From Candidatus Omnitrophota bacterium (GTDB lineage: Bacteria; Omnitrophota; Gorgyraeia; 2-01-FULL-45-10): 64,000 nt of DNA. The position numbers and the translations under genes are program-made. The notes under the pieces were generated by a model, which saw only the letters and a list, made by a program, of their open reading frames with translations, was not told the origin of the DNA and ran no database searches. Position 1 is the stretch's first letter. Each line of letters starts with the position of its first letter. Positions 1 to 60,500 of this stretch are shown piece after piece. The stretch spans positions 7,887 to 71,886 of the forward strand of contig JAUYOL010000011.1 in the NCBI GenBank assembly GCA_030695905.1, in the 5' to 3' direction.

Positions 1-3000
1 TATTATTCTCATCGACATCTTCCAATTCCAATGTTCTCAATATTTTTTCATAAGAGATAGACGCGTCATATCCATATTTACGTAGGAAATCCGGAAATAG
101 GTCTTCTCTATGGTAGTATTTTGCGAACTCGGCGGCAAATTGAAGCCCCCTGAGTTTGTCAAATTCCGTAATCTCGCCCTTTTTCATTTTTGTAAAATAA
201 AGATTTAATTCATATAATGCCATCATACAGAGCGTTGCTTTGGAAGAATCTACATAACCCGCATTTAGTGAAACAATATATACAGCCTTGCCATCCATCG
301 TTTTCGCATCCGAAACGAGACAAGCATCCTGACTATCATTATAAGAAATGCTAAAGCCAATCGGCCTTATTAACTCTTTAACATCCTTTAAATAATCGTT
401 GAACCCAAAGAAATAGGAAACAAGCGATACCGCTTCCCGCGCTTTTTCTGTCCTTATATTTGCCGCATTAATATTCTTTATGACAAAGTCAAAGCTATCG
501 TTATCTTGTAAAGGCACCACATTCTCAGGCAGCACAAACCCGTCTTTGTAGTCTAAGCCATCGATTATCCTCGAATTGGGGAATCTGTACTTAGTGTCTG
601 TTTCTTCTCTTTTAGATGATTTGACTTGCGATGAAACTCTTCTTTCAATATTATCCCAGGGCTCTTCTCTTGTTATACCTTCTATCATGATCGTTAAAGC
701 TTGAATGTTATGTTTGAGTATCGATGCGGTGGTTGTTCCGATAAACTGACTGTGCGGATAACGCAAACGAATTGGACCTGAATAGCACCGCGTGCTATCG
801 CACGACAAGATAGCGATTATTTTAGTTCCAAATTGCAAAATGTTTCCTTGCGGAGCCTTTTCGAGAGCGAGGGCAAGCGATGCTCCCATGCCGGAATGCC
901 CTGAATAAACTATCATATGAATTTGTGGATCACCAATATAGCTAAATACCTCTCCTTTATAATTTTTCGGGTCCCCCGTGGGATCACAATACACGGTGAC
1001 CTTTTTACCATTGAGCTCCCTTCTATATATAACCAACCGCGCTTTTTCCTCCCTTGAATAACCTGCCGCCACGAACATACTATTAAAATAATCCGGCGAA
1101 GTCGGGGCATAGAGCCTTATATTGAGCTCCTGACCCGGGTTCTGCTTTTTATCAAATATCTCTTCGTAGGGTGGGGCGGATTGAGGCGTAAAAATTGATT
1201 CGACACTTTTTACCAAGCCAGGGTTTTTGCCATTTAAAAAGGTATGATCATTTTTATTAATTGTGCTTAACGTAACGGCAAGGCACTGAAGATACATATT
1301 TCTCCTCGAAGGAACTTCTTTGCTCATAATAGAAGTATATATTACGTCACAGATTTCAGCTTTTTTATCAAGATCTACCGCTTTGCTTGAAATAGCAAAC
1401 ATCATTAAATTAAAATCTCTATAATCTATAACTTTTTTCTGTTTAATATCCGCGATTTTTTTGCCAACTATTTCTTGGAATAATAATTTTTTTCCAGCTA
1501 CATTTTTTGCCAGTTCTATTCTTACATGTTCATCATGAATTAATTCGAGTATTCTTTCAAAAAACTTTCCGGATGCCAACTGTGGGTTATTTTGAAATAT
1601 TTGGATTAAGGCTACCGCCGCTTCACAACAAGCCTTTCCATCTTTATCATATATTCCCTGGTTCTCTTGCGTTAAAAGCGATATTGCCTCTTGGGGCCTC
1701 ATATATTTATTCTCTACCCATTTACCAATTAACCCAATAACATAACCCCGGATATAGGAAGAAGGACTTTTAAATCCAACGCCTTCCTTTTGCGTTAGAA
1801 GCTCTATTGCTTTTTCCGGGTTGATTTCTGGCAAAATTTTGGTGGCCTGTTCAACTACATATTCATCTTTATCATATATTCCCTGGCCCTTTTGCGTTAA
1901 AAGCGATATTGCCTTTTCCTGAGTCATATGTTTATTTTCCACCCATTCAACAATTAACCTAATAACCTTGTTTCGAATAACAACAGAAGGGTCTTTCAAG
2001 CCGATATCTTTATATTGCGTTAGAAGCTCTTTTGCTTTTTCAAAATCTATTTCTATCAAAATTTCGATGGTATGTTCGCGAATAAATTCATTTTCATCAA
2101 TCAGGAGTTCCTTTGCTTTTTCCAGGTCGATTCCTAACAAAACTTTGATGGCCAAGCCAGTGACCCTACTAGCACTATCATTTATCCCCTGGTTCTCTTG
2201 TATTAAAAGCGATACTGCCTCTTCCGGCTTCATATATTTTCTCTGTACATATTCACCAATTGAGCTAATAACGCGGATCCTTACTTCATAATCCGGGTCT
2301 TTTATTTTTTCTTTAATCGCATCCAAATTGAATGATGGAGCTATGGCTATCTGGGCAGGCATTGAAGTCGGTGAAACAGCGTACGCCGGCGCAAAGATAT
2401 TAGCGGCCACTCCTATCAAAAAGCACGCAATGCTTATAATAAACAATCTTCTGAAGCCATCCGCGATATTCCTCCAAATCGATACCCAGCTTACACTACC
2501 GCCTGAGATTGCAGCACTGGCCTGCACTGCGGCTGGCGCTTGCGTCGTAGTTTGCGGCCGTATAACCTTCTCCCCTCCGGGTGGGTAAGACGGTACAAAT
2601 ACCTTCCGGTCACCTATGTTAACCGGTTCTCCATTAACGATAAGCGGTTCTGAGTTCTCAAATTGCGATAAGGAAAATATAACGCTAGTTCCGTTCGTGA
2701 ATGAACCGCCATTGATAAGCCCTGTCACCACTTTAATGGCTTCATCAAAAGCATCATTATGGCCTAACACGTTTAGGTATGACGCTATCTGCAATGACGA
2801 CTGTCTTTCACTAATCGTCTTTGTGATAGGATCAACTCCGCCCGAAAGTAGCCTGAAGTATGGACAGTCACCTTCTGATTTTTCCATTTTTGGTAAAATC
2901 TCTATATATGAATAACCTTTTTTCTTGAATATCTCTTTTAAATTATCTTTGTGAAAACCACCGGTAACGAGAATAACCGCGTCGGATCGACCTATCTTCA

Positions 3001-4348
3001 TCTTATGGGTTATATTTTTAATGAACGCGCTATCTCTCTTCAGGGAAAGAGAGTAGAACTTCTCCATATTTTCCCTGTACTTATCAAGGCGCGCCAAGCC
3101 TTCATCTACCTTAAAATCGAATCCGTATAGCGGGCATTTAGCGGATAGAAAAGATATAAAGTTCCGTGCGGCAAAATCATCCTTATGCCCGAGGTAATAG
3201 TCCCAGTCTTCTTTGACAAGGCTTACCGACAAGATATTCTTTGTGATATCAAGCCGCCTGGACAATATATGCAAAGCCTTCTCGTCATCATTAACGAAAC
3301 TGGATTCAAATATCTTTTCTTCAATGGACTTAAGCTGGCGCGAAAATTCCCTCTTATTGATGGACTCAAAGCGGCTTACGTACTCTGAATATCTCATTAA
3401 ATTCGGGGACTCGCTGATATCGAAACCGCAAAGTTTCGCCTTTGCGAATAAATATGAATAAAATTCCTCTTGAGGTATTTCGCCTGCGTGAAACGCAACT
3501 GTTTTTGCCACCATTTCTTCAAGATATTTTTTAGAGAGCCTCTTATTAAGTTTATCTATCAGAACATTGCGCTCTCTTTCAGCTACTTTGAAATCTATAC
3601 TATTTTCATCCTCTATTATTTTGGCAAGTTCAAGGACATCCTTAAATGAAGATATGTCAACATTGCGCATTTTCGCGGTGCTCACGAGGCTGGGCATATA
3701 CTCTTTAACATCGAGCTTGCCTTCGCTATACTGTGAAGCCTTTTCATCCAGGGCCATAAGCTCTTTTGAGTAGATCCTGGATTTAAGATTTGTGATGGCG
3801 TGGTTTAATAGATTAACGCATTTGTCCGCGTCTTCTTTGAAGCCCAGAGAATCCCGGTAGGTTTTTAAATTCTCGATATAATATGCCGGGTCCTCTATGC
3901 CGTACAGGGTTACCGCCTGCGGATTATTTATGGCATAGAACTCCGAGCCATTAACTTCGCCTTCTTTCACAAAATAATCCGCGACATCCTGCCTGATCTT
4001 AGCGTCGGCTATGTTAGTAAAAGGCGTAAGGTCGTAATCACCAGCACCGCCTTCAAGCGCTATTAAGTCTACGCCATATTTATCGCGCATATACGATATG
4101 ATCGAGGCAATGGACTGCTGGGCAGAATAGTTGCAGTGGGCGTCCTGGATGTGTATGATGGTCTTGTCGAGTGTGCCTTTGAAGGTGTAGGCAATTTCGC
4201 CTAAGTTTATAGGGACCTTAATGTCCCCTATATTCATCTTATTATGAGCTAATAGGGATTCAGAAGACAAAGGCCTGCCTATGCCTTGAGCTTCACCTAA
4301 CGGCCCTATTGATTGCAGGATAAAGGTGAAGCATACGGCCAAAGCCAT
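1..4348 (-). CDS. Large exported multidomain protein, 3' end beyond the window (>=1449 aa inside window). Possible Tiki/TraB/GumN-like N-domain, one central TM helix, PBS-lyase HEAT-like tandem repeats, and a caspase-like His/Cys region (SGHSG...LSCDS)
   Basis: I translated the reverse complement by hand. The frame is continuous from ATG at 4348-4346 (alternative in-frame ATG at 4393 gives the classic signal peptide MYMVIPLRRHIICKIMALAVCF...) to position 1 with no stop. It is absent from the ORF track only because no stop lies inside the window. Protein-like composition. A GxxH...E...GxxH pattern (TIIHIQDAH / ALEGG / TGGFHKDNL) is reminiscent of the Tiki/TraB/GumN superfamily. Repeats such as DPDYEVRIRVISSIGEY / DPSVVIRNKVIRLIVEW / SPSSYIRGYVIGLIGKW are PBS-lyase HEAT-like. 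MIVYSGHSGMGAS...IAILSCDS resembles a caspase/CHAT His-Cys dyad. Confidence 0.7.
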   Translation of the reverse strand, partial: MALAVCFTFILQSIGPLGEAQGIGRPLSSESLLAHNKMNIGDIKVPINLGEIAYTFKGTLDKTIIHIQDAHCNYSAQQSIASIISYMRDKYGVDLIALEGGAGDYDLTPFTNIADAKIRQDVADYFVKEGEVNGSEFYAINNPQAVTLYGIEDPAYYIENLKTYRDSLGFKEDADKCVNLLNHAITNLKSRIYSKELMALDEKASQYSEGKLDVKEYMPSLVSTAKMRNVDISSFKDVLELAKIIEDENSIDFKVAERERNVLIDKLNKRLSKKYLEEMVAKTVAFHAGEIPQEEFYSYLFAKAKLCGFDISESPNLMRYSEYVSRFESINKREFSRQLKSIEEKIFESSFVNDDEKALHILSRRLDITKNILSVSLVKEDWDYYLGHKDDFAARNFISFLSAKCPLYGFDFKVDEGLARLDKYRENMEKFYSLSLKRDSAFIKNITHKMKIGRSDAVILVTGGFHKDNLKEIFKKKGYSYIEILPKMEKSEGDCPYFRLLSGGVDPITKTISERQSSLQIASYLNVLGHNDAFDEAIKVVTGLINGGSFTNGTSVIFSLSQFENSEPLIVNGEPVNIGDRKVFVPSYPPGGEKVIRPQTTTQAPAAVQASAAISGGSVSWVSIWRNIADGFRRLFIISIACFLIGVAANIFAPAYAVSPTSMPAQIAIAPSFNLDAIKEKIKDPDYEVRIRVISSIGEYVQRKYMKPEEAVSLLIQENQGINDSASRVTGLAIKVLLGIDLEKAKELLIDENEFIREHTIEILIEIDFEKAKELLTQYKDIGLKDPSVVIRNKVIRLIVEWVENKHMTQEKAISLLTQKGQGIYDKDEYVVEQATKILPEINPEKAIELLTQKEGVGFKSPSSYIRGYVIGLIGKWVENKYMRPQEAISLLTQENQGIYDKDGKACCEAAVALIQIFQNNPQLASGKFFERILELIHDEHVRIELAKNVAGKKLLFQEIVGKKIADIKQKKVIDYRDFNLMMFAISSKAVDLDKKAEICDVIYTSIMSKEVPSRRNMYLQCLAVTLSTINKNDHTFLNGKNPGLVKSVESIFTPQSAPPYEEIFDKKQNPGQELNIRLYAPTSPDYFNSMFVAAGYSREEKARLVIYRRELNGKKVTVYCDPTGDPKNYKGEVFSYIGDPQIHMIVYSGHSGMGASLALALEKAPQGNILQFGTKIIAILSCDSTRCYSGPIRLRYPHSQFIGTTTASILKHNIQALTIMIEGITREEPWDNIERRVSSQVKSSKREETDTKYRFPNSRIIDGLDYKDGFVLPENVVPLQDNDSFDFVIKNINAANIRTEKAREAVSLVSYFFGFNDYLKDVKELIRPIGFSISYNDSQDACLVSDAKTMDGKAVYIVSLNAGYVDSSKATLCMMALYELNLYFTKMKKGEITEFDKLRGLQFAAEFAKYYHREDLFPDFLRKYGYDASISYEKILRTLELEDVDENN
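1480..2300. repeat. About three tandem DNA repeats of roughly 230 bp (e.g. 1643-1742, 1866-1972, 2167-2275) encoding the HEAT-like protein repeats of the large gene
   Basis: Near-identical stretches such as tcatatattccctgg...gcgttaaaagcgatattgcc...ccaattaacccaataac recur three times. Plus-strand shadow ORFs 1507-1740 and 1968-2291 show the same periodicity. Confidence 0.7.
2573..2594. repeat. Degenerate in-frame copy of the palindromic element seen at 50751-50785 and 60629-60659 (ccctccgggtgggtaagacggt), encoding ..YPPGGEKVIRP.. in the large gene
   Basis: 18 of 18 nt (ccgggtgggtaagacggt) are identical to the right arm of the 50751-50785 palindrome. The left arm is decayed. Confidence 0.5.
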
Positions 4349-4449
4349 TATTTTGCAAATTATATGTCGCCTTAATGGTATTACCATATACATATGAGTT
4401 TACACGATAATAATATCAATTCAAGTCGGATTCTCTTACTTTTTTATGC

Positions 4450-4581: not shown

Positions 4582-4655
4582 TGGTGGAGCCTACGGGAGT
4601 CGAACCCGTGACTCAGCGTTGCGAACGCTGCGTAATTCCACTTTACTAAGGCCCC
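4582..4655 (-). tRNA. tRNA-Ala (anticodon CGC)
   Basis: The 74-nt sequence GGGGCCTTAGTAAAGTGGAATTACGCAGCGTTCGCAACGCTGAGTCACGGGTTCGACTCCCGTAGGCTCCACCA folds as a cloverleaf. It has the G3:U70 alanine identity pair, anticodon loop TTCGCAA, T-loop TTCGACT and an encoded CCA. Confidence 0.88.
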
Positions 4656-5049: not shown

Positions 5050-5322
5050 TTACGTAAGAGTACCGATCATAGTGCCGACAGCATCCTGGACCAGCGCCCA
5101 GTCCTGCTGATTATGTATGGCGAATTTCTGCTTTCTTTTCCATCCGCCCTCCGGCCTCTTCTGCCACAGGTAGAAACATACCTGTTTTCTTCCGTAGCTT
5201 TCAAGCAGGACTACCGCCGACCACCAGCCGAAACGCTTATTTATCGTCTTATGATCAAGTACCTTTAATGGCGCGACTATCGGTACTTGCTCTTCTTCGC
5301 GTATATTTTTTGGCTCGGGCAT
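5050..5322 (-). CDS. Hypothetical Trp-rich small protein
   Basis: 90-aa ORF co-oriented with its neighbours and with a GGGGG Shine-Dalgarno about 8 nt upstream. No recognisable family. Confidence 0.45.
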   Translation of the reverse strand: MPEPKNIREEEQVPIVAPLKVLDHKTINKRFGWWSAVVLLESYGRKQVCFYLWQKRPEGGWKRKQKFAIHNQQDWALVQDAVGTMIGTLT

Positions 5323-50794: not shown

Positions 50795-53700
50795 TTACGC
50801 CGAGATAAGGGTTGCGGCGACTTTCTCGTAATCAGGCTTGTCATAAGCTTGAGCGGGCCTGTAAGCAAGAATACCGCGTATAAGCTTACCTATCTCATTC
50901 TTGGCGATAGCCATGATGTAATCGTCAATCGCTATCTTTTCAGCAAATGTAAAGTGCGATTTTAAGTAGAAACTCAACAACCTGTATACAGACGAACTTA
51001 CGTCTATCTTTTCATCTACTGCGCGCATAAGTAACATTACAACATATGTATCCTGCTGGAATTGCTTCCTGTAGGGGTCTTTAGCACCCTTTGCGGTCAA
51101 TAGCTCATTCCTGTTAGCTATCATAAACCGTATGCCGGCATCTTTAAGTGCCTGATAATGCCTTTCTTCAAACCTTCCATCCGGCAGCTCATTCGGAAGC
51201 AGAACTATTGTTCTGTCCTTTACAGCGTCCGGATTAGCAAGGACACTGTGAATAAATTCATCTGCATCGCGTCCGCTTACACTATCGAGATTAAACCTGT
51301 CGCCATAATTTATCTGAGCTTCTTTTAGCTCGCCGTTTGCAAAGAATTCAGAAGTAACAAGCAGTGTGAAGCGGGTATCGGCTTGAACCGGGATCTGAAC
51401 GCCCGCCTCGTTGGCAAGTTGAATTGCGGCGTTGATCTCAATTTCAGCTGACCTATTCATTTCCGCTACTGTAAGCCTATCGGGTACATGACGCAATGAC
51501 ACAGACTGTGGCCGTTCATCTGCTGTCGTTGTTGCTGACTGCGTAAGCACGGGCTCCACGGCAAGTTTAATAGTTTCCGATCTTTTGCCAAGCACGACAG
51601 GTTGTTTATTAAAAGGAAGGATCGACTCAACAAGCGCTTTTGTATTGCTCGCGCCCAACTTATCGAATATGGTTGCAAATTCTTCATATAATGCTTTGTC
51701 AACAGCGGCACGTACATGAGGTGGTAAATTCCAAAGCATATCCTTGAATGGCGCCGGAAGTTCCTTCGCGGCATCCTTTAATGTCCCTTTTAGCCCCTTA
51801 GGCATAAAATCACCCATTATTTCGGTAATGATCTCTGCGCGGGACTTCCCGGATTGAACGGCAGCAAGTTCTCTATACATGGTGGTTTTCTTTCCATCAT
51901 CTTTAGCGGCCGCTATAGCAAGATCCGCATTCCCAAAGGCCAGATTCCACATAGGCCTGAATTTTTTGGAAAAATTTTCATCCCTTGCCATCAAAGCCTC
52001 AAGCCATTTCGCCATAGCTTCGCCGACTTCCGGCATCATATCGGCAACTATACCGAGCTCTATCTTCTGGTATTCGGTGGCAAGATGCACTTCTCCCACA
52101 TCGCCTTGTTTCATCTTACCAAAATCTTCCTTTTCAAGAGTAGAAGCGCCGTGCTGAACAAACACAGGAATACCGATTCTTTCCCAGTATCTAACATGGC
52201 GCCGATAGATACCAAAGTCTATTTCTCCACCTACGCCATGCATGGTACCTGTCTGAAGGCTTATCTTGCTTGGCCCGACCAGGCCCTCGGCTTCGGCCAT
52301 TGCCAGAATGGTCTTTGCCAGCGTAACCGATCCCAACACAGTGCTTGGGTTATTCTTATGCTTCGGGTTATCTATGTGGCGCTCTTCTATGCCTATTGAG
52401 ACAGGCATTGTCAGTCCTAACTCTTCCTCCAATGCCCTGATATAACGAATAAAACGCATTGTGATCAAAATGCTTGGCCGGTGCATATTCTTGTATAGTC
52501 TTTCTAAATGCTCTTGATGCACTGGAGTTAAAGATTTAATGTCGCCCATCTCTATCTCGTCCACCAGGCGTCGCCAGAGGGACTTTCTGCCATTGTCATC
52601 AAGCCCGTAAAGGAGATAGACGTTCTGATCCAAATATTCACGCACAAAAGCATTCTCAAGTTGTGTAATCTTGTTCAGGGTCCCCTCGTCAACCAATGTG
52701 GAAGGATCAAGATCGATATTGTATACACCCGCCAGCATGGATTTACGAATAAGCTCTTCTATAGCTTTTAATTCTTTTTCTCTCTCATCACCGCCTTTAT
52801 CATATTTCTCCTTGTTTACCTGATAATGGTCGCCCTGGGCAAAGATGAGGCCTTCATAACCCTGCTTAATGGCCGCCGCAATACTGACAGCAGTGAACTC
52901 AGCCATATCCTGCGCCGAGTAGCGCATCTCTGAGCGGGCTAATTCCAATAACAGAACGCCGACATTCTTGTCTTTGGCAGCGCGAAATAACTGCTGGTAT
53001 TGATGGTAAACATCGGTCCTTCCGTTAACAGCGGGGACTGTTATTTTACCCCACTTCCCGTCTTTTTTGGCGGCATAGAAATCATTGATCGAGGCGAGCT
53101 TCAGATTGAAACTGATCGCCGCTTCGCGCAATATTCTTTGAGCGGCAGCTTTCACGTCCGGATTCTCGCTGAAGGCCGATTCAAACGCCAGATAATCAAC
53201 TGTCTGGGAGTGGAATTTAGCCGCATCGAGAATAATCACCGAGTCCGCCGTCACTTTCAGGCTATCTCCAATATTACGCAGGAGTTCAAAAATATCCCTG
53301 GCTCTCGTCGCTGTTGTCACTGCAGGTACCACTGCCGCCATAAACGCGGATTGCGCTGTGGATTTAGTATTTTCATACGCCAACGGGACATCAGAATATT
53401 TTATTGTAGAAGCATCGGAATCCAGCACCAAAAGATTCTCAGGAGCAGGATGATTCCGGAAGAGTTCATATGCCTGCGAATTGGTTATTTTCGTGTTCAC
53501 AAGAGAAACTACTCTAAGACTTGGAAGGCCGTATAATGGTGCCAGATCAGCGACATCGGTATCATTAAGGTCTAACGAAAACACGCTGCGCTCTGGATAA
53601 CTAAGCAAGCGATCCGCGGGAAGCTCATTACCGCGAACAAACTGCTGCAATACTCTAAGCTGTTCGTCAAAACTGGGCGCGGCCGATATGTTTATCTCGG

Positions 53701-56700
53701 GCAGTTTATTGAGCGACTCGCCGAGGATATTCTTCCTTATTCCGGTCATGCCTTTTTCTACGGTCAGTGCCATATGGATCAGATCGATAATCCTCCTGCC
53801 GAATATGAGGTTGCCGTCCTTGTCAGGCCTGGCTCCTTCGACAAGAGCCTTGAATGCCTCTCCATATTTTTCATCCCGGCTGAGTTTTACAAGCAGCGCA
53901 TCATCGGCCTTTATTGCCAAATTTCCCGCCACAACCATATTAAGCATTTTGCGTGTGATATATATGTTGTGCGCTGTTCCAACTAACTCTGTTAACGAAA
54001 CCGGACCCTTTGACGAAGGGAACAGGGCCACCGCACCGGCCGTTCTATTCTTAACATATCTATAGGATTCTGTCGTTAACAAGGTCTTGGGCGAGTCTAA
54101 TGAATCTATTATCTCATCGGCATCAGGCCTGGCAATTACACAGACATTGGGCCTTCTCATATTAAAAGCTGATTCCGATTGAGAATTTATCGCATCTATT
54201 GCTGCATTAATATCATAACCGCTGGGTCTTTTAACCTTTTCGGAAGGCAAAAGGTCTCTAAGGTTTTCTTTCGGCCCAATAACGCCCAGGACGTTCTTTC
54301 CGCAAAGTTCAGCTTCTGTAAAAATACCGCTATCTTTCAAATCCACTTTACCCATTGCTTCCGATACAGGCCTTGCCCTCATGGTCCTTTGTATATCCAC
54401 AACGGTCCTTGAGCCTTTATCGGCGGCAATACACACACCGCCGTCCGAAATGACTCTTTTTCTTTTGGCTTCTTCTGTAATCAACGGAACGGCTGTAGCA
54501 ATAGCCAGTTCTCCCGTGATAATGTCAATACTATCCTTATTAGGCGCCCTTGACCTTCCGCTGTATCCGGTATCTTCCAGAAAAAGATTTTTATCTCTTT
54601 CTAAGCCTAATTCAACAGCAAGCGCCTCAGCCACAAAGTCTGCTATGCCAAGCTCGGCAAGCAGAGGGTTACCATTGACATCTGTTTTTACATTGGCAAA
54701 CTTTGCCGCCAAAAATTTGTTTCTTTTGAGGATTTTTTGTAGTAGTTGATCCTTTGCCGATACTCTGAACCCCTCCGACACAAATACGGCACTAGCGCCA
54801 TACTCATTCATTCTCGATCTAACCGCTTCGGCTATATCATATAAAGAAACGATAACGCTACCATTAGGACTTACTGACCATTCTGGAACCGCCGCAACGC
54901 TGATAGGCGACTCTAAAGCCCCTGAAACGGTCAAATAGCCCATATCGCGGCCCATCATCTGGAACACGACACATTTCCAGCTGCCGGGCTCGGGTGATGC
55001 GCGCCGTGAAAATTCGTTTGCATTCTGCCCTGCGCTGTCTGCGCCCATCGGGTATACCATCGTATCACCGTCTATCGTCTTGGGAAGGACTAGCACCATC
55101 ATGTCATCTACCTTTGATTCTTTAAATTTCTTAGCTATCTTTGCTGCCTCGCCCATATGGTCATTCCCGCCGACAAAAACCACTGTCTTGCAATAACCCT
55201 GTAAATTCGCCATTGCCTGAAGCGTTAACTCTTCGTTCAGCTTGACCCTCGACGTGCCTTGCGCGGCGCCGGGCTTGTTAAGCAGCTCATCCGCCATTTT
55301 TTGATCCACCCATACACGGTTTTCCGCAAATTCCCCGGATGACTTCACCAGCGTATCCAGGCCGAACCTTTGGATTTCAAGCGTCATGCCAAATCGGGCA
55401 AGAGCCTTTGCCAGTAACGCGAAATAATTATTTACACCCGGCGCTTCTCCGCCGCTTATCATTATTATCACGCGTTTTTCCGGAGGAACTTCACTCGGCT
55501 TGAGCCACGTCTTTACTCTTGTCATCGCAGCTACAGGCTGGTCAACCGTAGGCACAATCACAGGCTTTAATATGTCTTCGATATTATCCTGCTTGCTCCG
55601 AACGGCCTTGACATGCTCTTTAATGAATTGCAGTGAAGCTGCATAATCTTTTTTAAACGCTTCGACCCCGTCTTCCTGCAACTTTGTAGTAATTGCATTT
55701 ATGTCTATATCACATTTGGACAAGGTATACATTACCTCTTGTGCCTGAACCGCTGTCATGTCATTTCTCGGCTCGGCTTCTACGCTGGTAGCCATTATCG
55801 AGGCATGCAATGTATCTTTCGGCATAGTATTAACTGTATTTTGCAAAGGGAGATTTGAAACATACATAAGCGGTGAAAATCTGGCACCATCAGCATAAGC
55901 TTCGTTTGATTTTATCTCCGTAGAAGCCCACAGAAGTCTTTGGGGCGCGGCGCCCATATTCAGAAGCTGTTCCCATAGTCGATGTCGATATAAAAATACG
56001 TTATTAGAAACATCGGATGCAAGCACCGTGTTAGCTATAGCGGCTTTTCCTATAAGGCTCTCCAAAATTGTTATGTTAGCCGCTGTCTCTTTAGGGTTAT
56101 CCGTTCTTGCTTTTTCCTTTGCGATTGCCTTCCTTATCTGCTCATCAGCCGCATCCGGCTTACAGTTCACCCTGCTCACGAAGAAACTCGCAACGGACTG
56201 TATGTCATAGATAGGTTTACGATCGGTAACTCTCCGCTCCAAGCCTCTCATATACGCCCTTGCGACATCTTCATAATTGGAAACCCCGAAAAGAAGAGTT
56301 ACATTGACATTGATTCCATTGTAGGTAAGTTCCTCTACTGCCTTTACGCCCTCGGGAGTAGCGGGAACCTTCACCATGACGTTTGGCATTCCAATCGCGT
56401 TAACTAATCGCATAGCCTCATTAACAGTATTCTGTACATCATACGCATATTTCGGGTTTACTTCTATCGATATATATCCGTCAAGATGCTTTGTCTTATT
56501 AAAGACGGGAAACCATTCCACAGCCATCTGTTTCATATACAATATACATACATAATCGTATATCTGTTCGGGCGTCCAGCCTTCGGCTATACCATGCTGT
56601 ATTTCTTTGTCGAACATACCTGCTTTTATGGCATTGTTAATTATCGTAAGATTTGTGGTTTGACCGGTGACGCCTTTTTTCTTAAAAAACCTGATCTCTT

Positions 56701-59700
56701 CAGGCGTAAACGCGCCATCCGCCCATACGCTCTGTCCTTTTTTACGTAGCAAGGAAATACCTTTACCGGCAAGGAGCCTGGCTGTCTTTACGATACCATC
56801 CTTATCAAAACCGTGTTTTTTATACAGCTCCGCGGGCGTTCCCGATTCGCCGTATTTGTCTATACCAAGGTTTCTGACAAATTGCGGTTTTGCGTTCCGA
56901 CGGGCGAGGATATTATCTATCTTATCTCCGAGTAGTCCCGGCAATGCGTCTATCACGCTTATAATATTTCTGCCACGCTCAATGAGTTTTTCAAAATCCC
57001 TCTTGTTAGCTTCATCAGCCGTTATGGATTTGAGCTGTGTTACATTCACAACCTCTACTGAAAGGCCGTATTTTTCTGAAAGATCCTTGGCCGCATTTAT
57101 CGCTTCAGCTGTTACTACACCGGATGAAACTATTACAATGTCACGGCTTTGGCTCTTTTTTCTATTTTTCCCGGACTCGGTATCAAATATCTTATAGAAA
57201 CCGCGCCTTGCGCCTTCCTGCCAACCTTCGGGTTTATTTTGTATAACCGGAGTATCAAGCCTCGCCGGCCTTATGTAATGTATGCCGCCTTTCTTCTTTG
57301 CAACGTCATATATACCTCTAAACAATACCCTCTGTTCTTCTGCGTCAGCACCTTCATAAGTTTGAACCCCCGGAAGCGCACCAAGAACACCAAGCGAATG
57401 CGCATCCTGGTGAGTTCTGCCATCCGGCCCGGTCGCTAAACCACCGTGCGTTCCAACGATTATTATCGGAAGGTTTGCATTTAATATGGCGTTAAGCTGG
57501 TCGACCATCCTCGTAGTAAATATGCTAAATGTGCCAATAACCGGAATCTTGCCGCACGCAGCAAGGCCTGCGGCAAATGAAACCATATGTGCCTCGCGTA
57601 TACCAACCGGTATATATCTGCCTAAAAGATTATCAGCTGAAAATGTCCCGAATAACTTCGCAAAACCGTCAAATTTATTAGAACCCATCAAGTCTGCCGA
57701 CATTGCAACCACATCAATATTATCCGCGCCGATAAGTGTGAGTTCGTGGCCTGTGGCAGTGCGAGTAGCAACATTTTTGCCCTCAGGATAACCTTTCTCT
57801 AATTCCTGTATAGCTTTTTGAACTGTTGCGCTATTTGTTATCTGACGAAGCGCCTCTCTTCTCGCCCCTACACGCGCTTTATTTTCTTTTTCTATACGCG
57901 CCTTCGTGTCGGCACCTAATGATATTTTCCTGATTAGATCTTCTACAAAAGCCTTTACAGCTTCCCTATGATTTTCGGGAGTGTACCTGCCATTGCTTAA
58001 AACGGCTAAATCCGCGTCTATAATAGCGAGCGCTTCTTTAACTTCGGCTTCTTTAGGCGCTTCACCGTGTTTTGCCATTCCCGGCAGGCCCGCACCTTTC
58101 GTAGTTTTCATTATAACTATAGCCGGCTTACCGTTACCAAGACTTTTCTTTGCTTCCTGAGTAGCTCTCATTACATCTTCTATGTCTTCGCCATTTGCCC
58201 TGACTACATTCCATCCTCTTGCTTCCCAGAGCTTAATTTGGCCTTCGTAGTCAACATCAACATCAGTAACTTTGTTATCTATCTGATATCCATTCCAGTC
58301 AAGAAACGCTACTATCTTAAGCCCCTTTGCCGCCGCTTCTCTATACGTTTCATCTTGCTTCTGTTTTAAAATAGCTCCTGCATGCCTTCCGGCCTCATCT
58401 ACCTGGCCTTCTTCGGTTTCACCATCACCAATTATGCAGTATGTTATATAGTCCTTGTCGTCCATTACTGCTGCAGTCGCCATAGCTACCGCGGCGGAAA
58501 AAGCTACTCCTAAAGGGCCTCCTGAAAACTCAACACCGATCGTCTTCGCCATGTCCGGATGGCCCTGTAAGTCTGATCCGAGCTTTCTCAATGTTTCAAG
58601 GAATTCTTCCACATCCTCGGTCTTCAATTTGCCCTGTTTCTTAAGATCCGCTATACGTTTTGCAAAATACTGTGCGCGCGCCAATGCCGCATATAGGCCG
58701 GGCGCAGCATGGCCTTTTGAAAGGACAAACCTGTCCCTATATTCCCAGTTCGGATCACTTGGATCGTATCTCATGATCCTTTCACCATTAGCATTCGTTC
58801 CAAAATATAGCGCAACGACCGCTTTTAACATAGAAAGCGAACCACCCGGATGGCCTGAACCGGCCTTGTAGATCATACTTACTACATCGCGCTCGAGTAT
58901 CCTTGTTAAAAATTTCAGATCCTGTATTAATCCGGGGCTATTTAGGCGAACACCTGCCGCGAATAAGCACTCGGATATCGCGGCTTCATCCAATAAATTT
59001 AAATCCTTTAATTTCGCCAACACGCCTTCTTCGGTAATGTCATTACGCACACGGTCAACGAGTATTTTCAACACTTTTGTTTGCTCTTCACGCGTTAATT
59101 TGGCAACAGCCGGTATTTCAATTAGCCTTTTCCATACATCTTTTGCCCTGTCATCACTTATCCCGATATCCGGCATATTTTCGTTCATTACTGCGGCTGC
59201 CGCAACAGGAGCTTCGAAATCAGTATCCGTCCTGTACTTTCTGCTGTCGGGACCAACAGAAATATCACCGTACGGCGCCATTGCTTGTGTAATTCGATAG
59301 GCAAGGGTAGCAAATTCATTGTAGGTGAGCTCGCCTACTATGCGCTTTCCGCTCTCCATGTGAGTAAAATTCAAAGTTTTCTTCCCTTGCCAACTATCCC
59401 CACCCTGGCCATCCCTCCTCAGCGTCCTCCACTGCCTATATTTATCCCAATCGCCTTCAAATGCCTCCTTTACGACAGCCAGATGGAAGCTTCTTTCTAA
59501 GTGCTCATGCGCCAATAATTGATCTTTTACGGTTGTAAATCCCCCCATGCCATATAACCACACACTTGTCTCTGTTGTACCCGTTTTGTCTTTATGCCAG
59601 GGGGCAACGGCATATATCCACCCACTTTCAACACCAAAGTGCGCGGCTTGTGAGGACAGCTGTCTTAGAAAATCGCTATACCCGTAGTGCAATTCGGGTC

Positions 59701-60445
59701 CGACATTTGCTCTACCCAGCAAGCCTGAAAAAAGTTCTTGTTCAGATAAACCGGTTACTTCAATAAGCTTCTCAAAGATAGCCAAAAAATTCCCGGCGGA
59801 TTTTTTATTATCTGCAACAAACCAATTAATCTTATTAGACTTGTCCACTACGAGGAATTTCTCGAATGCCTTTGGGTTTTTTCCGACCTCGTAAAATAAC
59901 GCGTCAAGCATCGCGTTAAGAACCCTGTGATCCGCGCAATCCATAGGGCCGGCATCTCTAACAGCTGCGGCTGTCGGAACTTCCCGCGATTTCGCCGAAG
60001 GCGTATTGTCTTTCGGGTATACGCTCAAGGTTTGTTTGGCAGGATCGTATTCTATAACATACCTTACATTATTTATGACCGCTTTCAGCGTTATAACACC
60101 ATTGAGCCCTGCTTCGGCTTCATGGCGGAATATTCTACCGTTACGTATATTGTCAATTGCTCTAACAACTTCGGGGGATACGCCCTTTAGCTCTTTCAAT
60201 GTTTGAGGAGTTATCGGCTGCTTCGCCTTTCTCATCGCCGCAAATAATTCCATGATAAGTATCGATATGCCGCGCGTGCCCTGGATGTCTTTGCCCAACA
60301 TATCGTCACTTTTTATGAGCGTAGCGAGTGTGTCAGAATTCCTCGCGCCTAATAACTCCTGCGCGAACCCTGTATCAAAAAGAAATGTATTGCAAATGAA
60401 TGCTATCAACACCACCAAAGAAGCTACACGATTTACTCTACTCAT
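50795..60445 (-). CDS. Giant secreted multi-enzyme fusion protein (~3216 aa). Signal peptide, N-terminal unknown region, split-type transketolase (TPP, Pyr and C domains), long-form transaldolase, phosphofructokinase (PKTIDGD type), unknown/LRR-like region, class II fructose/tagatose-bisphosphate aldolase, C-terminal unknown ~350 aa
   Basis: Single uninterrupted ORF. Start is ATG 60445 (SD AGGAGG 7 nt upstream); the track uses GTG 60451. Tkt motifs: GSGHPGGSLSM..ALYF, DRFVLSKGHAAPGLYA, LQGHPD, GDGETEEG, GIREAHM, GPDGRTHQ. Tal motifs: VWADGAF, GQTTNLTI, MVKVPATPEG..NVNVTLLFG, LWASTE..VNTMP. Pfk motifs: ISGGEAPGVN, VGGNDHMG, LPKTIDGD, MGR. Fba motifs: AQGDHYQ, GTMHGV, FVQHGAS. Approximate nt spans: Tkt 59060-56850, Tal 56780-55530, Pfk 55480-54300, Fba 53100-51870. 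Confidence 0.9.
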   Translation of the reverse strand: MSRVNRVASLVVLIAFICNTFLFDTGFAQELLGARNSDTLATLIKSDDMLGKDIQGTRGISILIMELFAAMRKAKQPITPQTLKELKGVSPEVVRAIDNIRNGRIFRHEAEAGLNGVITLKAVINNVRYVIEYDPAKQTLSVYPKDNTPSAKSREVPTAAAVRDAGPMDCADHRVLNAMLDALFYEVGKNPKAFEKFLVVDKSNKINWFVADNKKSAGNFLAIFEKLIEVTGLSEQELFSGLLGRANVGPELHYGYSDFLRQLSSQAAHFGVESGWIYAVAPWHKDKTGTTETSVWLYGMGGFTTVKDQLLAHEHLERSFHLAVVKEAFEGDWDKYRQWRTLRRDGQGGDSWQGKKTLNFTHMESGKRIVGELTYNEFATLAYRITQAMAPYGDISVGPDSRKYRTDTDFEAPVAAAAVMNENMPDIGISDDRAKDVWKRLIEIPAVAKLTREEQTKVLKILVDRVRNDITEEGVLAKLKDLNLLDEAAISECLFAAGVRLNSPGLIQDLKFLTRILERDVVSMIYKAGSGHPGGSLSMLKAVVALYFGTNANGERIMRYDPSDPNWEYRDRFVLSKGHAAPGLYAALARAQYFAKRIADLKKQGKLKTEDVEEFLETLRKLGSDLQGHPDMAKTIGVEFSGGPLGVAFSAAVAMATAAVMDDKDYITYCIIGDGETEEGQVDEAGRHAGAILKQKQDETYREAAAKGLKIVAFLDWNGYQIDNKVTDVDVDYEGQIKLWEARGWNVVRANGEDIEDVMRATQEAKKSLGNGKPAIVIMKTTKGAGLPGMAKHGEAPKEAEVKEALAIIDADLAVLSNGRYTPENHREAVKAFVEDLIRKISLGADTKARIEKENKARVGARREALRQITNSATVQKAIQELEKGYPEGKNVATRTATGHELTLIGADNIDVVAMSADLMGSNKFDGFAKLFGTFSADNLLGRYIPVGIREAHMVSFAAGLAACGKIPVIGTFSIFTTRMVDQLNAILNANLPIIIVGTHGGLATGPDGRTHQDAHSLGVLGALPGVQTYEGADAEEQRVLFRGIYDVAKKKGGIHYIRPARLDTPVIQNKPEGWQEGARRGFYKIFDTESGKNRKKSQSRDIVIVSSGVVTAEAINAAKDLSEKYGLSVEVVNVTQLKSITADEANKRDFEKLIERGRNIISVIDALPGLLGDKIDNILARRNAKPQFVRNLGIDKYGESGTPAELYKKHGFDKDGIVKTARLLAGKGISLLRKKGQSVWADGAFTPEEIRFFKKKGVTGQTTNLTIINNAIKAGMFDKEIQHGIAEGWTPEQIYDYVCILYMKQMAVEWFPVFNKTKHLDGYISIEVNPKYAYDVQNTVNEAMRLVNAIGMPNVMVKVPATPEGVKAVEELTYNGINVNVTLLFGVSNYEDVARAYMRGLERRVTDRKPIYDIQSVASFFVSRVNCKPDAADEQIRKAIAKEKARTDNPKETAANITILESLIGKAAIANTVLASDVSNNVFLYRHRLWEQLLNMGAAPQRLLWASTEIKSNEAYADGARFSPLMYVSNLPLQNTVNTMPKDTLHASIMATSVEAEPRNDMTAVQAQEVMYTLSKCDIDINAITTKLQEDGVEAFKKDYAASLQFIKEHVKAVRSKQDNIEDILKPVIVPTVDQPVAAMTRVKTWLKPSEVPPEKRVIIMISGGEAPGVNNYFALLAKALARFGMTLEIQRFGLDTLVKSSGEFAENRVWVDQKMADELLNKPGAAQGTSRVKLNEELTLQAMANLQGYCKTVVFVGGNDHMGEAAKIAKKFKESKVDDMMVLVLPKTIDGDTMVYPMGADSAGQNANEFSRRASPEPGSWKCVVFQMMGRDMGYLTVSGALESPISVAAVPEWSVSPNGSVIVSLYDIAEAVRSRMNEYGASAVFVSEGFRVSAKDQLLQKILKRNKFLAAKFANVKTDVNGNPLLAELGIADFVAEALAVELGLERDKNLFLEDTGYSGRSRAPNKDSIDIITGELAIATAVPLITEEAKRKRVISDGGVCIAADKGSRTVVDIQRTMRARPVSEAMGKVDLKDSGIFTEAELCGKNVLGVIGPKENLRDLLPSEKVKRPSGYDINAAIDAINSQSESAFNMRRPNVCVIARPDADEIIDSLDSPKTLLTTESYRYVKNRTAGAVALFPSSKGPVSLTELVGTAHNIYITRKMLNMVVAGNLAIKADDALLVKLSRDEKYGEAFKALVEGARPDKDGNLIFGRRIIDLIHMALTVEKGMTGIRKNILGESLNKLPEINISAAPSFDEQLRVLQQFVRGNELPADRLLSYPERSVFSLDLNDTDVADLAPLYGLPSLRVVSLVNTKITNSQAYELFRNHPAPENLLVLDSDASTIKYSDVPLAYENTKSTAQSAFMAAVVPAVTTATRARDIFELLRNIGDSLKVTADSVIILDAAKFHSQTVDYLAFESAFSENPDVKAAAQRILREAAISFNLKLASINDFYAAKKDGKWGKITVPAVNGRTDVYHQYQQLFRAAKDKNVGVLLLELARSEMRYSAQDMAEFTAVSIAAAIKQGYEGLIFAQGDHYQVNKEKYDKGGDEREKELKAIEELIRKSMLAGVYNIDLDPSTLVDEGTLNKITQLENAFVREYLDQNVYLLYGLDDNGRKSLWRRLVDEIEMGDIKSLTPVHQEHLERLYKNMHRPSILITMRFIRYIRALEEELGLTMPVSIGIEERHIDNPKHKNNPSTVLGSVTLAKTILAMAEAEGLVGPSKISLQTGTMHGVGGEIDFGIYRRHVRYWERIGIPVFVQHGASTLEKEDFGKMKQGDVGEVHLATEYQKIELGIVADMMPEVGEAMAKWLEALMARDENFSKKFRPMWNLAFGNADLAIAAAKDDGKKTTMYRELAAVQSGKSRAEIITEIMGDFMPKGLKGTLKDAAKELPAPFKDMLWNLPPHVRAAVDKALYEEFATIFDKLGASNTKALVESILPFNKQPVVLGKRSETIKLAVEPVLTQSATTTADERPQSVSLRHVPDRLTVAEMNRSAEIEINAAIQLANEAGVQIPVQADTRFTLLVTSEFFANGELKEAQINYGDRFNLDSVSGRDADEFIHSVLANPDAVKDRTIVLLPNELPDGRFEERHYQALKDAGIRFMIANRNELLTAKGAKDPYRKQFQQDTYVVMLLMRAVDEKIDVSSSVYRLLSFYLKSHFTFAEKIAIDDYIMAIAKNEIGKLIRGILAYRPAQAYDKPDYEKVAATLISA

Positions 60446-60500
60446 TGCCACTCCTCCTGTTTATGTTTCATGACGAACTTTTTAATCTTTTTTACTTTCC

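Follow-up and report, generated by a model that had tools for sequence, protein, structure and literature searches.

A large Omnitrophota protein combining a TIKI/Ere-like head with a putative clan-CD peptidase domain, and the multi-copy family to which the head belongs

The window analyzed here is a 64,000-nucleotide (nt) stretch of contig JAUYOL010000011.1 (positions 7,887 to 71,886, assembly GCA_030695905.1) from a bacterium of Candidatus Omnitrophota, a phylum of widespread, uncultured, host-dependent or predatory nanobacteria whose large surface proteins are thought to mediate cell interaction. On its minus strand, positions 1-4393 belong to a real chromosomal Omnitrophota gene that encodes a modular envelope protein, and contain at most four-fifths of that gene, from the 5' end. 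A predicted signal sequence leads into a conserved N-terminal head, which is followed by hydrophobic segments, HEAT-like repeats and a domain modeled with the caspase fold of peptidase clan CD. Judging from the models, the head and the C-terminal domain are new families within known superfamilies, covered by neither Pfam nor NCBIfam. By its sequence, the head also defines a multi-copy family restricted to Omnitrophota, in which signal peptide, head and a short C-terminal tail are constant and the middle varies. That the gene is genuine and has this domain architecture we hold to be highly likely. Taken as a whole, the best explanation is an exported, membrane-tethered envelope protein with two hydrolytic centers, which we consider fairly probable; it may serve as an effector.

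The reading frame and its two conserved domains

Translated on the minus strand, positions 1-4348 give one uninterrupted frame of 1,449 codons, as a preliminary description of this DNA had reported. The five remaining frames contain 52-139 stops each, and their longest open reading frame (ORF) has 107 amino acids (aa). The same description had called the gene unannotated; this proved to be a display artefact, the list of ORFs leaving out those that touch the end of the window. The frame exits at the window edge, so that the 3' end of the gene and the C-terminus of the protein lie beyond it. Upstream of the ATG at 4348 the frame stays open for 17 more codons, with in-frame ATGs at 4393 and 4387 and a stop just before them. 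Because homologs and two close relatives carry a basic n-region ahead of the N-terminal hydrophobic helix, the true start is most likely 4393 or 4387, 13-15 codons upstream of 4348, and with a start at either position the N-terminus looks like a normal signal peptide. Residue numbers in this text take the ATG at 4348 as residue 1; those of the 575-aa construct are higher by 15.

An alignment of the query with 37 shorter members of its family reveals three head motifs: IHIQ-D-A-H-C-N-Y..AQ, L-E-G-G and T-G-G-F-H..N. Within them a D-x-H, E and H set (D69/H71, E99 and H466; D84/H86, E114 and H481 in the construct) is invariant in all 38 sequences, the others being 34-45% identical to the query. 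The corresponding sets of known enzymes are E3900/H3902/E3930/H4030 in RRSP and H85/E113 in Bcr135 (PMC6254334). D69-x-H71 of the head is matched by E3900-x-H3902 in RRSP and by His85 in Bcr135, the head having Asp in place of the first Glu; the distance of 28 residues from His to Glu is identical in the head, Bcr135 and RRSP; and H466 corresponds to H4030 of RRSP and H289 of EreC. The preliminary description had read these residues as a GxxH..E..GxxH pattern. Its second element is a literal GxxH and the Glu lies in LEGG, but the first element is QDAHCN. In the AlphaFold2 (AF2) model of the head (predicted local distance difference test score, pLDDT, 84.8; predicted template modeling score, pTM, 0.77), which is a confident one, an N-terminal helix is followed by a small core of alpha/beta type. 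Each of the three motifs stands at the end of a core strand, and the core has the central parallel beta sheet between helices that is common to TIKI, EreA, ChaN and TraB at the level of the fold.

The acid-x-His, the Glu 28 residues later and the second His after a late strand are what the head shares with TIKI, the Ere enzymes (EreA/B/C, Bcr135/136), ChaN, TraB-PrgY-GumN, RRSP-PMT and HopBA1. Its long helical insertion sits where the Ere enzymes have their lid domain. It differs from the TIKI/Ere superfamily in its QDAHCN motif with an invariant Cys, in the length of the insertion (~300 aa), in being confined to Omnitrophota and multi-copy, and in always standing at the N-terminus of long proteins with several domains and a common tail. 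The predicted extracytoplasmic placement of the head behind a signal peptide would be like that of Tiki, PrgY/TraB and ChaN.

The AF2 model of the C-terminal region (C-region) is confident and matches CHAT, separase and gingipain structures, and it is on this model that we assign the domain to the caspase-hemoglobinase fold of clan CD, the dyad being canonical in its order and position. His1151 and Cys1183, which lie 32 residues apart with the His first, are invariant in 73 of 73 aligned domains, and N1362, Y1365, E1380 and R1400 in the C-terminal subdomain are also conserved. The SGHSG (1149-1153) and LSCDS (1181-1185) sequences are located as first described. In separase, in CHAT proteins (TPR-CHAT/Csx29, SAVED-CHAT, DdvA) and in gingipains a His and then a Cys likewise end consecutive parallel strands; His211 and Cys244 of gingipain R have a spacing close to the one found here. 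Separase and TPR-CHAT proteins in addition carry helical repeats of the HEAT/TPR/ARM type directly N-terminal of the peptidase domain, as the window protein does. Unlike these systems, the domain described here has a C-terminal subdomain of its own and occurs as an internal module of large Omnitrophota proteins or as a stand-alone protein.

A word-indexed search with the C-region found no homolog, and a profile found only 3 proteins. An exhaustive HMMER scan of 1.84 billion representative sequences returned 76 matches, 16 of them below 1e-30. The best of these align over the full 550 residues and are parts of other large proteins (1,000-6,545 aa), of which three have source names, all Omnitrophota; the weaker ones are stand-alone proteins of 480-750 aa, rich in Ala, Pro and Arg. 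The succession of HEAT repeats and His/Cys domain recurs in the closest relatives (P0121, P0122 and P0123), and the cassette of helical repeats and His/Cys domain is also present in other large Omnitrophota proteins that lack the head. As far as the model can be trusted, these sequences constitute an unnamed family of CHAT/separase-like clan-CD domains with an invariant His/Cys pair. Five His/Cys proteins without the head (P0124, P0127, P0128, P0131 and P0180, relatives of window positions 17-1651) share a different C-terminal motif, ..GFTPVIIxIQPMxDLxxFLGL.., a sign, perhaps, of a second head/tail class among the large proteins of Omnitrophota.

Sequence-profile searches weigh against both domain assignments, and a structure search with the head against that of the head. 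With the whole protein, Pfam gave no match at E <= 1 to PF01963, Erythro_esteras or Cofac_haem_bdg, and NCBIfam gave no match for either domain. Searches of Protein Data Bank (PDB) sequences with the head, by phmmer and by profile, came back empty; six mini-heads from which the insertion had been deleted had no TIKI-family match in Pfam at E <= 10; and hhalign gave a probability of 2% for the head-core profile against YbaP of E. coli, a true TraB-family protein. The Foldseek search with the head was not significant: EreC ranked fourth and Bcr135 sixth, in a list dominated by coiled-coil and other helical matches because the ~300-aa helical insertion attracts them. Neither the query nor 53 relatives of its C-terminal domain matched Peptidase_C14, CHAT (PF12770), C13, C25, C50, C11 or C80 in Pfam, and NCBIfam offered no name for the 53 relatives. 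The preliminary description had listed profile searches without support for its TraB-like and caspase-like assignments as grounds for giving them up, and formally this is how the searches came out.

What the models and the invariant residues do support is that both assignments stand at the level of superfamily and fold, not as membership of Pfam TraB_PrgY_gumN or of Peptidase_C14/CHAT. The head is best seen as a new divergent family with a modeled TIKI/Ere/ChaN fold, a preserved catalytic-type residue set and no detectable membership of TraB_PrgY_gumN. Of the Tiki/TraB-like domain first proposed, the fold and the residues are retained and the support from Pfam, NCBIfam, PDB and hhalign profiles is lacking; of the caspase/CHAT dyad, the modeled fold and the invariant His and Cys remain, with no peptidase profile behind them.

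Between the two domains, residues 677-751 score 30.2 bits with the HEAT_2 model of Pfam, above its cut-off of 27.7 bits (E 5.4e-7). Two 75-aa units at residues 754-828 and 829-903 are 59% identical in amino acids and 74% in nucleotides. In the DNA they appear as direct repeats that have a period of 225 nt, are 74-76% identical and occupy 1639-2088; part of a third copy lies at 2176-2272 (TRF and repeat search). The three 77-aa repeats of the PBS-lyase subtype initially described are therefore HEAT-like and visible in the DNA, but their period is 75 aa, they amount to two units and a partial one, and HEAT_PBS was not reported at E <= 1 in the Pfam search.

Table 1. Features of the gene, of its predicted product and of the adjacent tRNA gene (window coordinates; residues counted from the ATG at 4348)
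Feature	Position	Strand	Remarks
Coding sequence	1..4393	-	3' truncated at the window; at least 1,464 codons from ATG 4393; other starts 4387, 4348
Predicted Sec-type signal peptide or signal anchor, MYMVIPLRRHIICKIMALAVCFTFILQSIGPLGEAQG	4283..4393	-	likely cut after AQG
Conserved head, modeled TIKI/erythromycin-esterase/ChaN-superfamily alpha/beta core, residues 43-517	2798..4222	-	common to 120/120 listed homologs
Invariant D69-A-H71, then invariant C72	4136..4144	-	alignment columns D84, A85, H86, C87 (575-aa construct numbering)
Invariant Glu99 (LALEGG)	4052..4054	-	28 residues past His71; alignment
All-helical insertion, ~300 aa, residues 154-453	2990..3889	-	between the Glu strand and the second-His strand (AF2 secondary structure)
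Invariant G463-G-F-H466 (TGGFH..N), second catalytic-type His	2951..2962	-	alignment
Weakly hydrophobic segment AAVQASAAISGGSVSWVSIW, residues 606-625	2474..2533	-	Kyte-Doolittle mean ~1.1
Strong hydrophobic helix LFIISIACFLIGVAANIFA, residues 635-653	2390..2446	-	Kyte-Doolittle mean 2.51 over 19 residues
HEAT-like repeat region, residues 683-903	1640..2302	-	two 75-aa units and a partial unit (~2.7 repeats)
Further helical-repeat region, residues 908-1050	1199..1627	-	directly ahead of the peptidase-like domain, in the model
Modeled clan-CD (caspase/CHAT/separase/gingipain) fold domain and C-terminal subdomain, residues 1074-1444	17..1129	-	
His1151, putative catalytic His, motif hhhY-S-G-H-S-G..G	896..898	-	model strand 246-249 ends just before
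Cys1183, putative nucleophile, motif K-hhhhh-S-C-x-G/S	800..802	-	next parallel strand; model strand 278-281 ends just before
tRNA-Ala(CGC), complete	4582-4655	-	between the CutA-like gene and the large gene

Head, cargo and tail in a family of Omnitrophota proteins

The 120 listed homologs of the protein (E 1e-101 to 1e-168, 35-51% identity) are 800-2,500 aa long and match query residues ~1-520 only. The window protein has what characterizes this family, an N-terminal signal and a ~520-aa head with IHIQDAHCNY, LEGG and TGGFH..N. The remainders of the homologs are diverse and include radical SAM, PPDK_N/PEP-utilizing, protein kinase, methyltransferase, GT2, SpoIIE, metallophosphatase and GNAT domains. 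Those homologs that bear organism names all come from metagenome-assembled genomes (MAGs) of Candidatus Omnitrophota/Omnitrophica, and genome records labelled 'uncultured Planctomycetia' among the head loci are probably mislabelled MAGs. A scan of one genome per species confirmed at least 488 head-encoding loci. Several genomes contribute 3-4 head copies to the best 80 loci alone; the complete 1.43-Mb chromosome CP070780.1, for example, contributes three.

At the other end, most complete members carry a tail of about 25 aa in which ...L+I+P[VI]D/N is followed by a helix of the form W..h.-W..AQ.A.L.S[LV]-COOH. It occurs as LRIRPVDWKSIDEWKKAQDAILQAV-COOH and variants of it, whatever the length of the protein or the nature of its middle. 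A hidden Markov model (HMM) of the tail finds it in 69 of the 120 head proteins, always at the C-terminal end (in P0061 the match ends 12 residues before the stop); about 25 more have diverged versions recognizable by eye, and most of the others are truncated by their contigs. Among the His/Cys-domain proteins without the head, the same HMM detects no tail. The idea that the tail might recur within the proteins as a cleavage site was rejected, the tail never being internal among the head proteins.

The variation of the middle can be seen at a single locus. One close relative, L032, has the same gene order as the window, namely a small ORF (orf90, 86% identical), CutA (57%), tRNA-Ala(CGC) and a head gene (52%), and is thus a positional ortholog. 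Its sequence after the head is unrelated to that of the window protein, so that by sequence comparison one locus has kept its head and differs in its cargo. The post-head sequence of the window protein is found in none of the best 80 head loci. Head and His/Cys domain occur together in 2 of the 76 His/Cys proteins, P0174 and P0134; the latter, with 6,545 aa, shows that the head can begin very long proteins.

In P0008, P0010, P0023, P0026, P0033, P0084 and others, radical SAM, PEP-utilizing, kinase or metallophosphatase domains stand behind a signal-like N-terminus with no predicted transmembrane (TM) segment between. Cofactor-dependent enzymes are not usually predicted in such a place; either they would be destined for another cell, or the helix in front of them is no true export signal.

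The giant proteins of Omnitrophota contain HEAT scaffolds and peptidases and mostly have a predicted signal peptide and/or TM helices, and their N-terminal regions are generally without identifiable domains (West-Roberts et al. 2023, 10.1101/2023.11.21.568195; 10.64898/2026.06.07.730766). The proteins described here resemble these giant proteins, the 'Archaeovorins', in phylum, in a predicted signal peptide and/or TM helices, in the HEAT_2 scaffold, in peptidase content and in modular shuffling, and the middles of the homologs draw on the same repertoire of radical SAM, PPDK_N, methyltransferase, glycosyltransferase and kinase domains. They differ in size, since the at least 1,464 aa visible here and the 800-2,500 aa of the family are far under the published 'giant' range. 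Neither a TIKI-like head nor a conserved tail nor a CHAT-like domain is described in the papers on giant Omnitrophota proteins, and a literature search found no paper linking Omnitrophota with TIKI, Ere, TraB or CHAT. The head-cargo-tail organization thus appears to be undescribed, and the head gives an identity to N-terminal regions, at least for an 800-2,500-aa family with hundreds of loci.

Topology, proposed mechanism and alternative readings

Read by eye, the N-terminus has the n-h-c layout of a signal peptide, with a basic n-region, a hydrophobic core of 16-20 aa and small residues at -3/-1 in an A-Q-G cleavage-type site. It does so when the start is at 4393 or 4387, and the length of the core is also compatible with a signal anchor. 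The AF2 model places a helix at residues 6-29. Two close relatives, L032 and L002, have textbook AXA signal peptidase sites (...DAYA/A and ...DAHA/I, the slash marking the cut), and 106 of the 120 listed homologs have a comparable N-terminus. The signal peptide first proposed for this protein is thus supported as a prediction, and its TM helix is upheld, residues 635-653 being the sole segment clearly above the TM threshold. This helix has GFRR before it and APAYA/VSP after it and resembles an internal signal peptide. Written out, residues 630-660 (2390-2460, minus strand) read GFRR-LFIISIACFLIGVAANIF-APAYA/VSP and combine a Tat-like RRxF with an AXA site. On this pattern, the helix may be a relic of the fusion of a head gene to a separately exported HEAT-peptidase gene.

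Two placements of the protein relative to the membrane are conceivable. A cleaved signal peptide and a single TM helix would put the HEAT repeats and the peptidase-like domain in the cytoplasm, although the arginines of the helix lie on its N-terminal side. The weakly hydrophobic segment at residues 606-625 may instead be the first leg of a TM hairpin, and everything would then be outside the cytoplasm; the low hydrophobicity of that segment makes the hairpin a weak point of the proposal. Two TM-like segments occur at this position in 11 of the 120 listed homologs, and 62 have no TM segment after the head. We favor the extracytoplasmic reading with modest confidence, because of the published prediction of extracellular HEAT repeats and the 11 relatives with two TM-like segments. 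That both hydrolytic centers are extracytoplasmic is a tentative proposition, to which we give a little under an even chance.

An alternative topology makes the protein a type-I TM signaling or regulatory protease, with the head as a periplasmic sensor or processing domain, helix 635-653 spanning the membrane, and a cytoplasmic HEAT and CHAT/separase-like protease that events at the head would activate, much as in membrane regulators with a CHAT domain. It would account for the single segment that clearly passes the TM threshold and for the many family members that have normally cytoplasmic, cofactor-dependent enzyme domains after the head. It would also place the GFRR arginines on the periplasmic side, contrary to the positive-inside rule, and the 62 of 120 members without a TM segment after the head indicate that head and remainder are usually on the same side. 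HEAT repeats in Archaeovorins are reported only from predicted extracellular regions (West-Roberts et al., 10.1101/2023.11.21.568195), and PADLOC found no match to a defense-system model. We consider a type-I protease unlikely.

In the extracytoplasmic arrangement that we favor, the protein would be exported by the Sec pathway and held at the cytoplasmic membrane by its hydrophobic segment or segments, with two hydrolytic centers exposed outside the cytoplasm. The head would be an esterase or peptidase acting through a His-Glu-activated water, as has been proposed for the Ere and TIKI enzymes (PMC6254334). The second center would be a Cys/His endopeptidase to which the helical repeats present substrate, as in separase and TPR-CHAT proteins. 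Its targets would probably be proteins or polymers of the envelope, belonging either to the cell itself, whose surface proteins would thereby mature, or to a host or prey whose envelope is attacked; both possibilities agree with what has been proposed for the Omnitrophota phylum. Going by the models and the conserved residues, we think it rather likely that both centers are catalytically competent. Two members of the superfamily speak against assuming catalysis from the fold, namely ChaN, which binds heme according to the title of its structure entry, and PMT, which has no catalytic motif (PMC6254334). A further limitation of the proposal is that the C-terminus, with the family tail if the protein has one, lies beyond the window, and searches for it were negative: an exact 48-nt pattern aimed at the 3' end matched nothing in genome contigs or metagenome contigs, and scanning metagenomes with the C-region protein brought up no relative. 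An exact-protein lookup with the neighboring CutA led to one Logan contig (SRR13727529, L001), which ends inside the tRNA just upstream of the large gene.

The head might also be non-enzymatic, a shared module for export, anchoring, folding or ligand binding that possibly docks the C-terminal tail, leaving the Cys/His domain as the sole catalytic part. A generic role of this kind would suit a constant part that stands beside variable middles and co-occurs with a constant tail, and the TIKI fold does include non-catalytic members such as heme-binding ChaN and the motif-less C2 domain of PMT. Yet residues of the 2His/2Glu type that are invariant in 38 sequences at 34-45% identity, with canonical spacing, are typical of a maintained active site, and a generic role is compatible with catalysis, for example if the head processes its own protein. 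For these reasons a non-enzymatic head seems improbable to us.

A self-processing polyprotein, in which the clan-CD domain and/or the head cuts in cis after export and so releases or activates modules, as in MARTX and large clostridial toxins, is a still less likely reading. The modular, shuffled architecture agrees with it; peptidase domains have been proposed to cut giant Omnitrophota proteins into smaller polypeptides (West-Roberts et al., 10.1101/2023.11.21.568195); and MARTX toxins likewise pair a TIKI-fold effector (RRSP) with a clan-CD processing domain. Against this, only 2 of the 76 His/Cys proteins carry the head and most head proteins have no clan-CD domain, which shows that processing by such a domain is no general feature of the family, and no cleavage-site motif was identified, the tail motif never being internal. 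The window protein is like MARTX and polymorphic toxins in having a constant part with interchangeable enzymatic modules, and in joining a TIKI-fold and a clan-CD protease domain in one polypeptide. Its family differs in that both ends are constant and the middle varies, and in that the TIKI-fold domain is part of the constant portion and not cargo; and unlike in those toxins, no RTX repeats, type I secretion signal or immunity gene were found in the Pfam scan or among the neighbors of head loci.

A bolder version of our reading takes head and tail as the constant ends of a phylum-wide export system, possibly one that delivers interchangeable cargo into a host or prey cell, with the head as a common processing or docking enzyme that recognizes the tail while the cargo is swapped in place at conserved loci. 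The cargo would comprise both proteases like the present one and enzymes that need cofactors and normally work in the cytoplasm (radical SAM, kinases, PEP-utilizing enzymes, methyltransferases). We rate this as speculative and rather improbable. Were the head indeed a common processing or docking module, it would make it possible to inventory envelope proteins and effectors across the phylum, it would supply defined residues to mutate, and it would open a testable route into the puzzle of cytoplasmic-type enzymes behind signal peptides.

Finally, a chimeric assembly or a decaying pseudogene is very improbable. In its favor are the drop in GC content across the gene, the break that a separate Logan assembly from the same population shows in the tRNA just upstream, and the fact that the whole architecture occurs at no other locus among the best 80 head loci. 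Against it, there are no stops in 1,449 codons as compared with 52-139 in the other frames, both conserved modules can be aligned with homologs over their full length and have lost none of the invariant residues, both have confident AF2 models, and P0134 and P0174 combine the same two modules.

Genomic neighborhood

The window is gene-dense and chromosomal, with nearly all genes on the minus strand. Upstream of the large gene lie tRNA-Ala(CGC), a CutA-like gene, small ORFs, ExbD/ExbB-like genes, and genes for a TPR protein and UvrA. Downstream of the tRNA-Ala, the GC content falls from ~45% to 38-42% across the large gene. A tRNA-flanked island or recent insertion was considered and rejected, since in L032, too, a head gene comes after this tRNA-Ala, which makes the arrangement ancestral synteny. 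A general association of the head family with tRNA genes was likewise rejected, a tRNA being within reach at only 5 of 60 loci. No paralog of the large gene was found inside the window, and no partner gene recurs beside head genes. The Etf and acyl-CoA dehydrogenase genes that do recur as neighbors reflect synteny of one head paralog. In the upstream flanks of loci L004-L081, this paralog is syntenic in 9 genomes with genes for acyl-CoA dehydrogenase, EtfB and a ferredoxin-fused EtfA, ~500 nt upstream and on the same strand.

Two further ORFs in the window deserve mention. At 50795-60451 on the minus strand, a 3,218-aa ORF joins the N, pyrimidine-binding and C domains of transketolase to transaldolase and phosphofructokinase in a single polypeptide; it has ~500 aa at its N-terminus and ~1,300 aa at its C-terminus without assignment, and contains neither the head nor the His/Cys domain. 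The second is the 90-aa ORF at 5050-5322 on the minus strand, which has no Pfam family and matches positions 1-195 of L032. Its identity of 86% is far above that of the adjacent CutA (57%) and of the head (52%).

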